A stretch of 64,000 nt of DNA, from IMG/VR virus record IMGVR_UViG_3300033463_000012. One strand, written 5' to 3'. Origin of the DNA: a virus (lineage: Duplodnaviria; Caudoviricetes). The notes below the pieces were generated by a model that ran no database searches, was not told the DNA's origin, and worked only from the letters and a program-made list of their open reading frames with translations. Positions 49,707-56,206 of this stretch are shown here, one piece after another. A program made the position numbers and the translations under genes. Within the stretch, counting starts at the first letter, position 1, and each line of letters opens with the position of its first letter.

Positions 49707-50999
49707 ATGAACACAAAGGAACTTTTCGAAGCCATCAAGAACACCCCCGGTCACGTGGAAAAGTCCAAGCTCGTCCACGCGAACATGACTGACGGACTCA
49801 AGGGCATCCTCGCCTACACCTACACTCGGGACCGCTACCACGTTCGCTCCACCAACGTGACCATCCCCGCTCCCGGCACGGACGACCTCATCTCCGTTTT
49901 CAACACCTACCCCAAGGCCACTCTGGACGACCTGAAGGCGGGGAAGATTTCCGGCAACGCGGGCATCGCGGCGGTCGAAAAGGTCCTCTCCACACTGGAC
50001 GCCTACAGCCAGCAGGTCTATCTCGCGGTCCTCGATCATAACCTCAAACTCGGGGTTTCTTCCTCGGTCATCAAGGATCTCGGCCTCAACGACAAGTTCG
50101 AAGTCGCGCTCGCCGCCAAGCTGCAGGACCAGAAGGGTTTGGACGTGTTCGACGGCAACTGGTTCGTCTCCCGCAAGCTGGACGGTTGCAGGTGCGTGGC
50201 GGAAGTCAACTGCGAAACTCGGGAAGTGAAGTTCCTTTCTCGCCAGAACAAGGAATTCACCACCCTCTCCAACCTGGTCGAGCCCATCCTCGCCAAGTTC
50301 CCCGAAACCGAAGGTATCTTCTATCTCGACGGGGAAATCTGCCTGGTGGACGACGAAGGAAACGAGGACTTCAAGGGGGTGATCTCCGAAGTCAGGAAGA
50401 AGAATCACACCATGGAACATCCCGCCTACAACGTCTTCGACCTGCTCACCTACGACGAGTTCTGGGGCACGGTGAAGTCTCCCATCTTTTCCCTCCGCCA
50501 CAAGGCCATCATCGATCGCGAGTTCGATGGGGTCTTTGTCCGCCCCCTCAAGCAGGAACGGGTCACCTCGGAAGAACAGTTCCTCAGGTGGAAGGAAGAA
50601 GTCAAGAAGGGTGGCTGGGAAGGCCTGATGCTCCGCAAGGACGCTCCCTATCTCTCGGGTCGCACGAAGGAACTCCTCAAGGTCAAGGACATGCAGGACG
50701 CCGAATACGTGGTCGAAGACGTGGTCCGCGGAGACATCTCCTACGCTGAACCGGGTCGCGGCCAGGTCACCTTCACGGACGTCATCAAGGCGCTCGTCAT
50801 CTCCCACAAGGGGGACAAGGTTCAGGTTGGCTCCGGTCTTTCCAAGGAACAGCGGCTGGAATGGGCGAAGAATCCTGCGGCCATCATCGGCAAGACGATC
50901 ACGGTCCAATACTTCGAAGAAACTCAGGCGAAGGACGGGACCTACTCGCTCCGCTTCCCCATCCTCAAGATTGTCTACGAGAACGGGCGCAACTGCTAG
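49707..50999 (+). CDS. gp30: ATP-dependent DNA ligase
   Basis: KLDGCR, LDGEI, VFD, EGLMLR, LLKVK, VGSG, SLRFP. Confidence 0.95.
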   Translation: MNTKELFEAIKNTPGHVEKSKLVHANMTDGLKGILAYTYTRDRYHVRSTNVTIPAPGTDDLISVFNTYPKATLDDLKAGKISGNAGIAAVEKVLSTLDAYSQQVYLAVLDHNLKLGVSSSVIKDLGLNDKFEVALAAKLQDQKGLDVFDGNWFVSRKLDGCRCVAEVNCETREVKFLSRQNKEFTTLSNLVEPILAKFPETEGIFYLDGEICLVDDEGNEDFKGVISEVRKKNHTMEHPAYNVFDLLTYDEFWGTVKSPIFSLRHKAIIDREFDGVFVRPLKQERVTSEEQFLRWKEEVKKGGWEGLMLRKDAPYLSGRTKELLKVKDMQDAEYVVEDVVRGDISYAEPGRGQVTFTDVIKALVISHKGDKVQVGSGLSKEQRLEWAKNPAAIIGKTITVQYFEETQAKDGTYSLRFPILKIVYENGRNC

Positions 51000-51006
51000 C
51001 AGAACA

Positions 51007-51087
51007 TAGAGCACCGGGTTGGCCTGAATATCATAACCCAAACAAGCGCATTCTCTTCCCCGATACTTGGGTCAGCTCGGTGCTCTA
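51007..51087 (+). other. Long G.U-rich hairpin downstream of the ligase gene
   Basis: About 25-bp stem 51007-51032/51062-51087. Confidence 0.6.
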
Positions 51088-51122
51088 AATTCAATACAAG
51101 ACGTTTCTCGCAGGGAGTTGAT

Positions 51123-51533
51123 ATGTTTAATAATTATTACATAAAATGTGAATGCACATGGACGGATGAAGAATTACAAGAAGATCCTATGGGGGGAGAT
51201 GAAGGTCCAAATCAATTCGAAGATGGTGAAACATATTCATTGAGCGATGTCGATGATATGATAAATTCTTTTGTTGAGGATTTTGAAGAACAATGTTGGT
51301 GGGGTGACCGAGATTTTGATGATAGATATATAAGAAAAGATCGAATTTCCATAGAAATTGATAATGATTTGGATAAATTCGCAATAAACTACATAGACGA
51401 AAATGAGGTAGAAAAGACATTAGCGACATTTAACATTAGTGTTCATTTGTATGACAATAATGATACAGACATACGTCCATCGGATTTGAAAGAATTATAT
51501 GGACACATCAAGGGTCAATTAAACAGTCTTTGA
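51123..51533 (+). CDS. Acidic AT-rich hypothetical late protein
   Basis: GGGAG SD, CTAAAT at 51085. Confidence 0.7.
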   Translation: MFNNYYIKCECTWTDEELQEDPMGGDEGPNQFEDGETYSLSDVDDMINSFVEDFEEQCWWGDRDFDDRYIRKDRISIEIDNDLDKFAINYIDENEVEKTLATFNISVHLYDNNDTDIRPSDLKELYGHIKGQLNSL

Positions 51534-51554
51534 TCAAGAGTCAATAGATTTCAA

Positions 51555-51590
51555 AAAGTCTAGCTCTCGATCAGGGGGCTAGATTTTTTT
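51555..51590 (+). terminator. Intrinsic terminator
   Basis: TCTAGCTCTC/GGGGCTAGA stem plus T tract. Confidence 0.7.
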
Positions 51591-51686
51591 GCAGATTTCT
51601 TTTCCATTCCACCTTGACAATTATTATATTATACACACGAACCACAGAGTTCTGAAGAAGTTTGAAAGTCAGGTCGGCAGGTTTAA

Positions 51687-51759
51687 TGCTCCATATCTCA
51701 GTAGGCAGAGAGTCCGACTGTTAATCGGAATGTCCCAGGTTCGAACCCTGGTGGAGCAG
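51687..51759 (+). tRNA. tRNA-Asn(GUU)
   Basis: Cloverleaf, TCCGA-CTGTTAA-TCGGA. Confidence 0.93.
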
Positions 51760-51765
51760 TGTTTT

Positions 51766-51856
51766 AGGAGTCGCTCCACCTCGCGGTCTTATAAGCCGTT
51801 GCGCATAATAAATCAGGTGGCGGTGCGCATGTTGGGTTCAATTCCCTCGACTCCTA
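51766..51856 (+). ncRNA. D-armless tRNA-like RNA with UAU anticodon
   Basis: AGGAGTCG/CGACTCCT acceptor, GCGGT-CTTATAA-GCCGT arm, long variable arm, GGGTTCAATTCCC T-arm. Confidence 0.75.
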
Positions 51857-51858
51857 TC

Positions 51859-51930
51859 GCACGTGTCGTATAGTGGCTATTACCCCGCCCCTCCAAGGCG
51901 GAGACACCGGTTCAATTCCGGTCACGTGCT
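51859..51930 (+). tRNA. tRNA-Gly(UCC) with C33
   Basis: Cloverleaf, CCGCC-CCTCCAA-GGCGG. Confidence 0.88.
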
Positions 51931-51932
51931 TT

Positions 51933-52497
51933 GAAGCAGCTCCACTGAAACTCGGTAGCAAGTGGAGACCCGTTGGAATCGAGTTGTCGTGAACGGGTGG
52001 GTCGTTTTCCGTGACCCAGAATTAGTTGTTGTAAAGGACACCAAAGTCCTATGATTGACGTTCCAAAGCGGATATCTCATAGGGCAACGGAATAAAGTTT
52101 ATGGGCGACCACCGAAAACGTCGATACCATGCCGGAAACACCACATGTTCAGAGCGTGTTGCAACAGCATGGTCCCTTGGCACTTCGTCAAGTAGCACGA
52201 TAGGTGCGAGCCCTTTGATTTTCGTTTCCGTTGAATCTATCTTTTCGGAAACGACCACCGGAAGGCGTTGGGATAGAACAGCGCTTGACAGATCATATTC
52301 GTGGTCCTCCGGTGGAAACCTTTTCACTTCAGACCATCGCTTCGATTTGATTTGAAGTGAACCCATCGGGAGAGGTCCCAGAATCGAAGCAACTGCTCTA
52401 ATTGTTGAGCAAGAATGATAAACCCTCGTCATAGCTTGATAGTGACCTATTTGGCCAATAGCAACCTTTCAAGTGATTGATGAACCGATGGGAACAC
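51933..52497 (+). ncRNA. Large structured ncRNA (ROOL/GOLLD-class candidate)
   Basis: About 565 nt between tRNAs, many helices, two pseudoknots, no credible ORF. Confidence 0.7.
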
Positions 52498-52501
52498 TTT
52501 T

Positions 52502-52592
52502 GGGAGATTGGCCGAGTTGGTCGATGGCGGCGGTCTCGAAAACCGCAGGTGGACCTCAAGTTCATCCGCAGGTTCGAATCCTGCATCTCCCG
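52502..52592 (+). tRNA. tRNA-Ser(CGA)
   Basis: Class II cloverleaf, GCGGT-CTCGAAA-ACCGC, G73. Confidence 0.93.
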
Positions 52593-52602
52593 TTTTGACT
52601 TT

Positions 52603-52706
52603 CTGGAGCGTGGCCGAGTGGATTATGGCGGCTAGTGGGGTGGCAACTCACGGCTTGACGCTCTCGCCGGGCGCCTCGTGGGTTCGAATCCCACCGTTCC
52701 AGACCA
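52603..52706 (+). ncRNA. tRNA-like RNA with 8/5 acceptor-T stack, encoded CCA and no canonical anticodon loop
   Basis: CTGGAGCG/CGTTCCAG+ACCA, normal D and T arms, extended arm capped by GGCA. Confidence 0.75.
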
Positions 52707-52790
52707 GGGTGAACGCTAACGATGGCGAGTTAGGAGAGACTGTAAATCCCTTGCCTTTCGGCTCAGGAGGTTCGAATCCTTCTTCACCCA
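52707..52790 (+). tRNA. tRNA-Tyr(GUA)
   Basis: GGGTGAA/TTCACCC acceptor, CTGTAAA loop, variable arm. Confidence 0.88.
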
Positions 52791-52902
52791 CTTCGAAGGG
52801 ACAGATTCCGAGGTTTAGCCATTGTCCCCGGAATTTGAAGGATGTTTCTTCCCCGTTTCCTTCCTTCTCACCTTCGAGCACTTTCACAAAAACGGAGAAC
52901 AC

Positions 52903-53262
52903 ATGGACACAGAAAAACTCAAAGCCGACCTGGAACAAAACTTCATTGACCTCTGCAATTCCCGCGGGGTCAAATGGGAAAGGACAGAAGACAAGATCAA
53001 AGTCAATGACGTCCTTTTCCGATTCGAAGTCACGCCGATTTGGAACCAATATCATCACGAATATGACCAGTTCCGATATGTCGCCTACGTACAGATTGGT
53101 GAACAGATTTATTCCTATCTCGGACAAATCATGGATATTGACTGGAAGGGAGATATGATCCCTGTTCCTCGTCAGCATGATTTCGTTCATCGTTTCGTGG
53201 CCGATATTGAATCCAAGTCAGTTTTCGGTGAACGGAACGAAACCCTCGTCAAACTTTCCTAA
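52903..53262 (+). CDS. Hypothetical protein
   Basis: ATG at 52903 with GGAG SD. Confidence 0.7.
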   Translation: MDTEKLKADLEQNFIDLCNSRGVKWERTEDKIKVNDVLFRFEVTPIWNQYHHEYDQFRYVAYVQIGEQIYSYLGQIMDIDWKGDMIPVPRQHDFVHRFVADIESKSVFGERNETLVKLS

Positions 53263-53273
53263 AGGAGAAAGAA

Positions 53274-53573
53274 ATGAAGAAAACCTTGAAGTCAGGGATA
53301 GTCAACTACGACAACGTCCCCATCTACAAGACCTCGGCCAACAAAAAGCATTGGAAGATTGTCCAGGCGTCCAAGTCCGAGTTCCACCTTCTTGAACGCT
53401 CCCGTGGTGGAAGCTATCATCTCATCAAGACATATTCCCGGTATCGTGACGCCCGCAAGTGGCTGAAGGACAACAACCCCGACCTGATCGTCTCCTATGT
53501 TCCTGGGGTGAATTTCTATTGTTCCTCTCAGCTCGAACCTGCCGAAACTCACATGACCTTTGGAGCCAAGTGA
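53274..53573 (+). CDS. Hypothetical protein
   Basis: AAGGAG SD. Confidence 0.75.
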   Translation: MKKTLKSGIVNYDNVPIYKTSANKKHWKIVQASKSEFHLLERSRGGSYHLIKTYSRYRDARKWLKDNNPDLIVSYVPGVNFYCSSQLEPAETHMTFGAK

Positions 53574-54634: not shown

Positions 54635-56206
54635 ATGGCTTTTGTACCTAATTTCAGTGATACGTTACGATGGGAAGGGGAGCAGATTGAATACACCCCC
54701 GAAATGCTCATCGAATGGAAGAAGTGTCACGATGACATCATTTATTTCGCCGAAAAGTATGTCTATGTGAACAACCTGGACACTGGCTACAATCTCGTCA
54801 AACTCCGTGACTATCAGAAGGAATTGCTGCTTGCCTACATGGATGATTCAGACCCGGACAAGAGAAACACCGTGGTCCTTTCCTCACGACAGTCAGGCAA
54901 GACGGAAACTTCATCGATCTTCATGCTGCACTACATCTTGTTCAATGAATACAAGAAGGTTGCAGTCCTCGCGAACCAGGCGAACCTTGCATTCGAAATC
55001 GTGTCCAACATCAAGATGAAGTATGAGCACTTGCCGAAATTCCTTCAACAGGGAATCAAGCGAGTTGGTGGATGGGCCGCGGGAAGAATCAAGTTGGAGA
55101 ATGGGTGCGAAATGAGAGCGGGCGCCACGACACCACACTCGATTCGTGGCTTTTCGGTCAATGTCCTGTTCTTGGACGAATTCGGAATCATTGACTCGAA
55201 GATGGCGAAGGAATTCATCAAGGCAGTCTTCCCCACCGTATCTTCCGGCAAGACGTCAAAAATCATCATCTCCTCCACCCCGAAAGGAATGAATCACCTG
55301 TATGACATTTGGGAAAAGGCGACCCGTGGTGTAGGTACATTCAAGCCGATCAAGGTCGACTGGACAAGAGTGCCAGGAAGGGACGAGAACTTCAAGAAGA
55401 AGCAGATCGAGGACATAGGCATTTTGGCCTGGAGGCAGGAATATGAATGCGCCTTCCTCGGTTCGTCCAAGTTGCTACTTGAAGGCGACTCCCTGATGTC
55501 CTACGGGATTCCGAAAGAGCCGATCAGATATGAATACAATGAACGTTTGAGGATCTACGAGGACTACAAGCAAGGTTGTTCCTATGTGATCGGTGTTGAC
55601 CCTGCAGTAGGAAACGGTGGAGACGACTCTTGTATACAGATATTGAGGATAGACGGCAAGGACAAGTTGGAACAAGTCGCGGTGTTCAATGACAGTCAGA
55701 CTCAATACGAGACGTTCTGTCAAATAGTGGTGGAACTTGCAGCTCGATACAACAATCCACCGATGATGGTGGAAAACAATGGCGTAGGTTCCGCAGTGGC
55801 CAACAAATTGTTCTATGATCTCGAATACCCCGAAATGGTTCACCTGGCCAAAAAGGGAATTGGTTGTCCTTCCTCCAAGCAGACCAAGTTGGAAATGTGC
55901 CTGTTCTTCAAGCAGTATTTCGAACAAGGCAAAATCAAGTTGAATGACTCCCAGACAATAAGGCAGCTGACCACGTTCGAAGAAGTGCAGCCGAACATAT
56001 TCAAGGCGGCGGGAACGGCTCACGATGACTTGGTCATGGCTTTGCTCTGGGCACTCTATTATTTGAAGACACCGTTCTTTGAAGAGGAAGCGGTATTGCC
56101 ACCTGAAATGCAAATCCCTGAACAAGAACCGATCAATGCCTTCATCTCGTCTCAAGGCAATGGATCCTTCTTGGACGAGGAATACATAGGTGGCGGTTGG
56201 GTCTAA
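54635..56206 (+). CDS. gp17: Terminase large subunit
   Basis: LRDYQ, SRQSGKT, FLDEF, STPKG, QEYEC, GVD, HDDLVMA. Confidence 0.96.
   Translation: MAFVPNFSDTLRWEGEQIEYTPEMLIEWKKCHDDIIYFAEKYVYVNNLDTGYNLVKLRDYQKELLLAYMDDSDPDKRNTVVLSSRQSGKTETSSIFMLHYILFNEYKKVAVLANQANLAFEIVSNIKMKYEHLPKFLQQGIKRVGGWAAGRIKLENGCEMRAGATTPHSIRGFSVNVLFLDEFGIIDSKMAKEFIKAVFPTVSSGKTSKIIISSTPKGMNHLYDIWEKATRGVGTFKPIKVDWTRVPGRDENFKKKQIEDIGILAWRQEYECAFLGSSKLLLEGDSLMSYGIPKEPIRYEYNERLRIYEDYKQGCSYVIGVDPAVGNGGDDSCIQILRIDGKDKLEQVAVFNDSQTQYETFCQIVVELAARYNNPPMMVENNGVGSAVANKLFYDLEYPEMVHLAKKGIGCPSSKQTKLEMCLFFKQYFEQGKIKLNDSQTIRQLTTFEEVQPNIFKAAGTAHDDLVMALLWALYYLKTPFFEEEAVLPPEMQIPEQEPINAFISSQGNGSFLDEEYIGGGWV

Follow-up and report, generated by a model that had tools for sequence, protein, structure and literature searches.

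It has been recognised since T4 that the tRNA clusters of phages can contain stable RNAs, and ROOL and GOLLD have made it clear that neighbours of tRNAs can be remarkable molecules. The tRNA array studied here raises the question of what fills a 565-nt gap between its tRNA-Gly and tRNA-Ser genes. The window, the whole stretch of 64,000 nucleotides that was analysed, is a piece of a 132-kb IMG/VR virus record that is about 66% complete. The phage is uncultured and T4-like, with a DNA ligase gene at 49707-50999 and a large terminase gene at 54635-56206. The public sequencing runs listed as containing the gap (24 runs from 14 studies) are bovine gut metagenomes, none of them an RNA run. A sequence-only reading had described the gap as one ornate, pseudoknotted RNA of about 565 nt, either of the ROOL or GOLLD type or of a new class.

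The gap lies in a tRNA transcription unit

The array contains the following elements, all on the + strand.
51598-51686, likely operon start, an AT-rich box and leader conserved in comparison with phage L037
51687-51759, tRNA-Asn
51765-51856, aberrant tRNA-like gene with the anticodon loop CTTATAA, matched only by the tRNA-Sec model (23.7 bits)
51859-51930, tRNA-Gly(UCC), upstream boundary of the gap (ARAGORN; Rfam tRNA, 57.4 bits)
between tRNA-Gly and tRNA-Ser, the 565-nt non-tRNA gap, with cassettes A, B1, Bmid and B2
52501-52593, tRNA-Ser(CGA), downstream boundary of the gap (ARAGORN and Rfam)
52604-52702, second aberrant tRNA-like gene, with an encoded CCA (Rfam tRNA, 33.4 bits)
52707-52791, tRNA-Tyr

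A hairpin and T-run at 51560-51597 precedes the conserved AT-rich box TTATTATATT, and a 26-nt leader (51661-51686, CAGAAGTTTGAAAGTCAGGTCGGCAG), nearly invariant between the window and L037, lies directly 5' of tRNA-Asn. No terminator-like site was found in 51000-53400, versus 2.1 in shuffled sequences, and all four cassettes are on the tRNA strand with no such site between them. The shared strand, the lack of a terminator-like site and the conserved leader thus point to one transcription unit.

No element of the array is better conserved than the tRNA-like gene at 52604-52702, which shares 98% identity with that of L037 and recurs in phages L142 and L203 beside different neighbours. Homologs of the tRNA-like gene at 51765-51856 head the arrays in L041 and L203. 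The gene after the array has a leader of about 110 nt (52792-52905 in the window) that is 86% identical to that of L037.

The gap is non-coding and matches no catalogued RNA class

Pfam gave no family for any ORF within the gap, none of these ORFs was present in a collection of 15 billion proteins, and homologs carry indels in loops, which break the reading frames. Rfam 15 was searched over 51400-53000, and within 51931-52500 no family reached E<=10, including ROOL and GOLLD. The ROOL model RF03087 (threshold 99.1 bits) matched neither 51400-53000 nor the whole 132-kb record at E<=10; because the identical search finds the ROOL of L. salivarius pMP118 at 130.4 bits, this negative result is meaningful. 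The absence of tmRNA and RNase P RNA, already noted from the motifs, agreed with ARAGORN and with Rfam at E<=10, and a "permuted tmRNA" called by ARAGORN at the 80% threshold was noise. Within 51931-52500 no tRNA model of Rfam matched at E<=10, and ARAGORN called no tRNA at thresholds of 80-90%.

Theta ribozymes, HDV-like RNAs of gut phages that are small, pseudoknotted and immediately adjacent to tRNA genes, have been proposed to mature tRNA ends (PMC10879173), and the gap likewise has a small pseudoknotted RNA against tRNA genes. However, no nested double pseudoknot of the HDV type (P1-P2-P3-P1'-P4-P2'), with a cleavage site at most 5 nt from the 3' end of a tRNA, was found. A loose HDV descriptor gave two weak matches versus 5.6 in shuffles, neither at a tRNA end, and there was no Rfam HDV match. 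ARAGORN, Rfam, the ROOL control and the descriptor scan together exclude ROOL, GOLLD, tmRNA, RNase P RNA and HDV-like theta ribozymes. Nor did nhmmer at E<=10 show any similarity of the gap to the T4 rnaC/rnaD locus or to true ROOL. The proposal of a ROOL/GOLLD-type RNA or a new class therefore holds in that the gap lies outside every class catalogued in Rfam 15 at E<=10, but the unit of ROOL size was wrong, as relatives show.

The gap is a chain of four separately inherited cassettes

Parts of the gap were found in other phages and sequencing runs in the following arrangements.
L037 and L206, only 51935-52100 of the gap, with tRNA-Tyr directly after it and no B cassette
L041 (IMG/VR), A immediately before tRNA-Tyr
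L142 (metagenome contig), a near-identical 52111-52215 (B1), 168 unrelated nt, tRNA-Val, a homolog of 52325-52498 (B2) and tRNA-Ser; farther along the contig, an endonuclease-like ORF, tRNA-Tyr and then A directly
L203, B1, Z1 (160 nt), tRNA-Ser(GCT), Bmid and tRNA-Ser(CGA), without A and B2
contig of run X4, B1, 89 nt and a tRNA-like element
contig of run X14, B1, 284 nt, Bmid and a tRNA-like element
contig of run X5, A and tRNA-Tyr
contig of run X3 (another study), 52048-52291 with one difference

L037 is the closest relative (its ligase is 90% identical in protein), and the array of L206 is identical to its array. Homology always breaks at 52102/3, 52213-23 and 52321/2, points that coincide with the ends of predicted folds, and these fixed breaks define the four cassettes. 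B1 was found without B2 in L203, X4 and X14, Bmid without B2 or an adjacent B1 in L203, and A without any B in L037 and L041. In relatives the cassettes were single or recombined, usually adjoining tRNA genes at a distance of 0-11 nt. Since the X3 contig spans 52048-52291 with one difference, the junctions in the window are real and not a misassembly. These data showed that the gap is non-coding and consists of four RNA cassettes joined end to end, each of which folds autonomously and is inherited separately. Only two to five distinct homologs represent each cassette. The idea of a structured non-coding RNA of about 565 nt was borne out in so far as at least three of the four parts are structured under selection; however, they are four assorting cassettes and not one RNA.

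Blastn of the 570 nt against GenBank phages gave no match. In IMG/VR, A was found in L041 only, and patterns for B1, B2, Bmid and the CCA-bearing tRNA-like element gave nothing. Matches to a loose loop pattern, ACTCGGTA..ATCGAGTTG, were mostly chance, L142 being the sole true one among 119 metagenome stretches, and all three matches to a stricter pattern in prokaryote genomes were chance. Covariance models of Bmid and A gave no additional homologs in 25 loci. Ligase relatives at 46-48% identity had no tRNA array adjoining the ligase, and 35 IMG/VR ligase relatives contained neither A nor B. For the 118-aa gene downstream of the array, a word-based search returned the protein alone, and HMMER found two relatives, one of which led to L203. 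A segment of about 280 nt shared by L142 (2209-2490) and the window genome is a small protein gene and was rejected as an RNA.

Helices proposed to tie the gap into one RNA

All six strand pairs and four further stems that had been quoted from the sequence were present where they had been placed. Five of the six pairs were perfect Watson-Crick matches, but the loop-loop pair 51949/51978 holds one G-U. Perfect inverted repeats of at least 7 nt numbered 24, versus 11.1 +/- 4.4 in 500 dinucleotide shuffles (2.2-fold), and those of at least 8 nt numbered 10 versus 2.8 +/- 2.1 (3.6-fold), with P of about 0.006-0.008 for both. At 9 nt or more there were three versus 0.7 in shuffles (P 0.07); as 0.7 such repeats are expected by chance, single matches of 7-9 nt are not rare and the list of stems alone proves little. 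The MFE z-score of the entire region was -3.17.

One long-range helix, CAACGGAA/TTCCGTTG (52085/52226), had been read as tying the gap into one RNA. Its 5' strand lies within A and its 3' strand within Bmid, two blocks that are adjacent in no relative. Relatives retain ACGGAA in A without Bmid, and TTCCGTTG in Bmid without A. Locally, ACGGAA has a conserved partner in the loop TTCCGT of an A hairpin (52007-52012), and TTCCG has its partner within an invariant Bmid hairpin (52222-30/52246-54). Because its strands are split between cassettes and each has a conserved local partner, this helix is unsupported, and we treat it as an accident of cassette juxtaposition. The pairings CCCATCGG/CCGATGGG and GCTTCGATT/AATCGAAGC were real, but both are confined to B2. 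No conserved pairing between cassettes was found; RNAduplex gave only meaningless whole-length duplexes between cassettes, which were discarded.

The gap could still be one large ornate RNA of a new class resembling ROOL and GOLLD, whose relatives would be domain-shuffled versions with linkers that may hold tRNAs. ROOL was discovered in cow rumen, has a mean length of 581 nt and several pseudoknots, and occurs in phages and prophages close to tRNAs (PMC5737381; bioRxiv 10.1101/2024.12.08.627333). GOLLD, a large RNA that phages encode close to tRNAs, is conserved in its 3' part and variable in its 5' part, and its linker contains tRNAs in some cases (bioRxiv 10.1101/2024.12.08.627333). Like both, the gap lies inside the tRNA array of a T4-like phage from cattle-gut metagenomes, and its size is near that of ROOL. 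In the window phage its parts are separated by U-rich joints alone, and the tRNA-Val between B1 and B2 in L142 recalls the tRNAs of the GOLLD linker. Complementary loops in A and the palindromic loop in B2 could contact other molecules as in ROOL and GOLLD cages. However, no Rfam model matched at E<=10 although the positive control worked, and A, B1 and Bmid were each found apart from the others. In ROOL the 5' part is intertwined with the 3' part and evolves together with it (bioRxiv 10.1101/2024.12.08.627333), whereas the parts of the gap separate freely. Unlike GOLLD, the gap has a smaller total size and includes a B1 that occurs without B2 in three arrangements. Pairing between cassettes was not conserved, the 52085/52226 helix being missing from every relative, and the MFEs of the modules sum to about -176 kcal/mol versus -185 kcal/mol for the whole region. 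We therefore consider a single large RNA unlikely and prefer the reading of four cassettes.

Compensatory changes in B2, Bmid and A

Cassette B2 has the following predicted elements.
52322-52498, + strand, cassette B2 (MFE z-score -3.8; homolog in L142)
52323-33/52351-61, 5' hairpin, whose loop 52339-47 pairs with 52382-90 (pseudoknot)
52362-69/52485-92, 8-bp helix closing the domain
52368-71/52376-79 and 52394-98/52407-11, inner hairpins
52426-30/52479-83 and 52434-39/52469-74, inner helices
52447-51/52457-61, invariant hairpin with the loop TGGCC

The B2 homolog in L142, which likewise adjoins tRNA-Ser, is 78% identical, and independent MFE folds of the two share one architecture. Between the window and L142, a C-G pair of the closing helix is replaced by T-A and a T-A pair of the loop-to-junction pseudoknot by C-G. 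In place of the 5' hairpin and two of the inner hairpins, L142 has unrelated sequences that still pair, and a 5-bp helix has two one-sided wobble changes. These compensatory changes support the predicted closing helix and pseudoknot. An HDV-like fold for B2 was rejected, as the pseudoknot strand in L142 sits inside a hairpin loop, which the HDV fold disallows.

Cassette Bmid has the following predicted elements.
52219-52321, + strand, cassette Bmid (MFE z-score -4.3; homologs in L203, L204 and L205, 135 bits with model R1)
52222-30/52246-54, 5' hairpin
52255-62/52308-15, helix closing a Y-shaped domain
52263-70/52279-86, helix 4 of this domain
52291-96/52301-06, helix 5 of this domain

About ten positions differ between the Bmid of the window and that of L203, where the cassette stands alone between two tRNA-Ser genes. 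Six of these fall within helix 4 (8 bp), where every substitution preserves pairing, including a change of T-A to C-G. X14 has an independent change in the same helix, from G-C to A-T at 52267/52282. The predicted structure of Bmid is thus supported by compensatory changes in helix 4.

Cassette A has the following predicted elements.
51937-52092, + strand, cassette A (homologs in L037/L206, L041 and L142, 169-178 bits with model R2)
51940-46/51961-67 (H1), 51968-74/51992-98 (H2) and 51999-52003/52013-17 (H3), three abutting hairpins
51950-56/51978-84, candidate loop-loop pairing
52007-12 in the H3 loop with the tail ACGGAA at 52087-92, candidate pseudoknot
52046-54/52077-85, variable hairpin P5
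52093-52102, + strand, AU-rich single-stranded joint to B1, TAAAGTTTAT

The first 88 or so columns of A are about 95% or more identical across four phages. Three pairs of P5 have compensatory changes. None of the other pairings of A (hairpins H1, H2 and H3, loop to loop, and H3 loop to tail) varied, so the homologs neither support nor refute them. In X14, two of the seven proposed loop-loop pairs are altered on the side of the H2 loop, uncompensated. The MFE z-score of A (nested fold) was -1.6, which is unremarkable. At least one cassette is pseudoknotted (B2), and perhaps A is too.

At the position of the joint between A and B1, L037, L206 and L041 have the start of tRNA-Tyr, and the homology with L037 runs on into it. 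A was directly beside tRNA-Tyr in L037/L206, L041, L142 and run X5 (L037 4518-4756; L041 2188-2427; L142 11224-11462; in the window, 51937-52791 spans A to tRNA-Tyr). The tRNA-Tyr of L142 is of an unrelated sequence type and lies on the other side of A. A functional link between A and tRNA-Tyr is possible, the sample being small.

Cassette B1 has the following predicted elements.
52103-52213, + strand, cassette B1, a predicted five-helix junction
52103-06/52210-13, predicted closing helix GGGC/GCCC
52126-32/52167-73, predicted long arm

B1 had about 90% mean column identity with its copies in L142 and L203, and its homology in runs X4 and X14 started at 52102/52103 and ended at 52213-52223. 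There was no covariation whatever among the homologs, and with an MFE z-score of -1.3 the fold is unproven. What favours B1 is its conservation and the sharpness of its boundaries. B1 as a tRNA-like element (the five-helix prediction with a 7-nt loop containing CAG or TAG) was unsupported by the Rfam tRNA model and by relaxed ARAGORN. Covariation in homologs, by which the structure was to be judged, was thus found in B2, Bmid and helix P5 of A, whereas the other A helices and all those of B1 were invariant.

Conservation and lateral transfer

The window and L037 are 72% identical at the third codon positions of the ligase gene and 77-89% identical in their tRNAs, and they have about two differences in the first 88 or so aligned columns of A; the slice 51937-52030, which reaches into the variable part of A, is 92.6% identical. 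L142 and the window genome have a protein identity of at most about 30%, except for one 84-aa ORF, and A and B1 of L142 are nearly identical to those of the window despite this scant similarity. Such near-identity across dissimilar phages may reflect either extreme constraint or cassettes moving laterally. Whichever holds, the more diverged copies, with their compensatory changes, speak for selection on the folds.

Endonuclease-like genes were present in the tRNA arrays of relatives: a 220-aa zinc-finger, endonuclease-like ORF within the array of L142 (11512-12174, - strand), which has 726 homologs, and a DUF559 gene in L204/L205. In all seven loci fetched (L194-L200), the homolog of the L142 ORF lay immediately after tRNA-Thr(TGT), inside large tRNA arrays on contigs of up to 420 kb; arrays with these homologs contained no A and no B. 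Lateral movement of the cassettes is plausible, because the arrays of relatives hold endonuclease-like ORFs, homologs of the L142 ORF occupy huge tRNA arrays, and T4 SegB drives the inheritance of its tRNA region (PMC2330249). The arrangement is best read as an exchange of cassettes among phages whose tRNA clusters bear homing-endonuclease-like genes. Genes of the TnpB/OrfB_IS605 type were seen in two related phage contigs (L142 2553-3785; L190 4264-5574).

A bolder version of this reading is that the cassettes are mobile, tRNA-delimited RNA genes moving between unrelated cattle-gut phages with the homing endonucleases of the arrays, and that their excised pieces form RNA-only multimers through invariant complementary loops, a smaller counterpart of the ROOL and GOLLD assemblies. 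The candidate loops are 51950-56 with 51978-84 in A, on hairpins without a linker, and the palindromic TGGCC of B2. We regard this version as quite improbable.

A different alternative is that the cassettes are cis-acting spacers, whose folds insulate the tRNAs or guide or slow nucleases and whose excised pieces have no function. They were always found within tRNA arrays, 0-11 nt from tRNAs, and many unrelated structured spacers (X1, X2, Z1 and W3) occupy equivalent sites in relatives. However, insulation demands a fold and not a sequence, whereas some 90 nt of A, together with the Bmid and B2 loops, hardly vary between phages with unrelated proteins, and the ordinary arrays of L194-L199 space their tRNAs by 3-20 nt without such elements. 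A role as spacers alone is therefore also unlikely. Non-functional filler, that is, decayed tRNA genes or recombination scars of homing-endonuclease traffic, is very improbable: the two aberrant tRNA-like genes in the array, the endonuclease-like genes in relatives' arrays and the five-helix, cloverleaf-like prediction for B1 with no covariation would fit it, but no tRNA matched inside 51931-52500 (Rfam, E<=10; ARAGORN, 80-90%), substitutions in Bmid, B2 and P5 of A preserve pairs, and the cassettes are more conserved than neighbouring real tRNAs.

Comparison with T4 stable RNAs and proposed release

The species 1 and species 2 stable RNAs of T4, rnaC and rnaD (AF158101 70908-71171), are about 120-140 nt long and are encoded on the tRNA strand within the tRNA operon, beside tRNA-Arg and the homing endonuclease gene segB. 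Through SegB the tRNA region of T4 spreads to related phages (PMC2330249). Like rnaC and rnaD, the window cassettes are non-tRNA RNAs on the tRNA strand of a T4-type tRNA operon and are contiguous with a tRNA; the T4 region carries segB (PMC2330249). Unlike rnaC, none of the four cassettes has its tRNA-like T arm end, and unlike rnaC and rnaD, the window has four chained cassettes, of which B2 (perhaps also A) is pseudoknotted. The gap would work most like the T4 stable RNAs.

We consider it probable that A, B1, Bmid and B2 are accessory RNA cassettes, separately inherited, co-transcribed with the tRNAs and freed by tRNA-processing enzymes in the manner of rnaC and rnaD. The cassettes and tRNAs would be transcribed together as one precursor, and the cassettes would generally be released from it by RNase P, cutting where the next tRNA begins, and by 3' maturation of the preceding tRNA. 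In the window phage, maturation of the 3' end of tRNA-Gly would make the 5' end of the non-tRNA RNA, and an RNase P cut at the 5' end of tRNA-Ser would make the 3' end of B2. As only U-rich joints and no tRNA lie between the cassettes here, the first product may be a chain of about 570 nt, and tRNA processing alone does not imply release as four RNAs; additional cuts in the U-rich joints are possible. The freed cassettes would persist as compact small RNAs, like species 1 and 2 of T4. That they act in trans in host takeover, for example as decoys or binding platforms for host factors acting on tRNA-like RNA, is a guess and a doubtful one.

The locus contributes four uncatalogued RNA families (A, B1, Bmid and B2), for three of which comparative data support a structure, and the cassette boundaries are now available for cloning. 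What these cattle-gut phages inherit as a unit is the individual fold, and not the large gap as a whole. Phages with almost no protein similarity carry the same cassettes in reshuffled order, so the cassettes are accessory genes that deserve testing. Before a large "ornate" gap in a tRNA array is proposed as one RNA class, comparative data should be used to split it.

Further cassettes in relatives

In L203, about 350 nt (1270-1618) lie between an odd tRNA-like gene and tRNA-Met and end in a T-arm-like hairpin; neither Rfam nor ARAGORN gave a match there. Two further cassettes were seen in relatives and are absent from the window. Z1, of 160-170 nt, comes after B1 in L142 (12973-13140, - strand) and L203 (2281-2443) and has an MFE of -66 kcal/mol. 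X1, of about 100 nt, is present in L037 (4384-4517) and L041 (2620-2727, - strand), and its closing stem changes from GATACC/GGTATC to GTTATC/GATAAC, which amounts to two compensated pairs.
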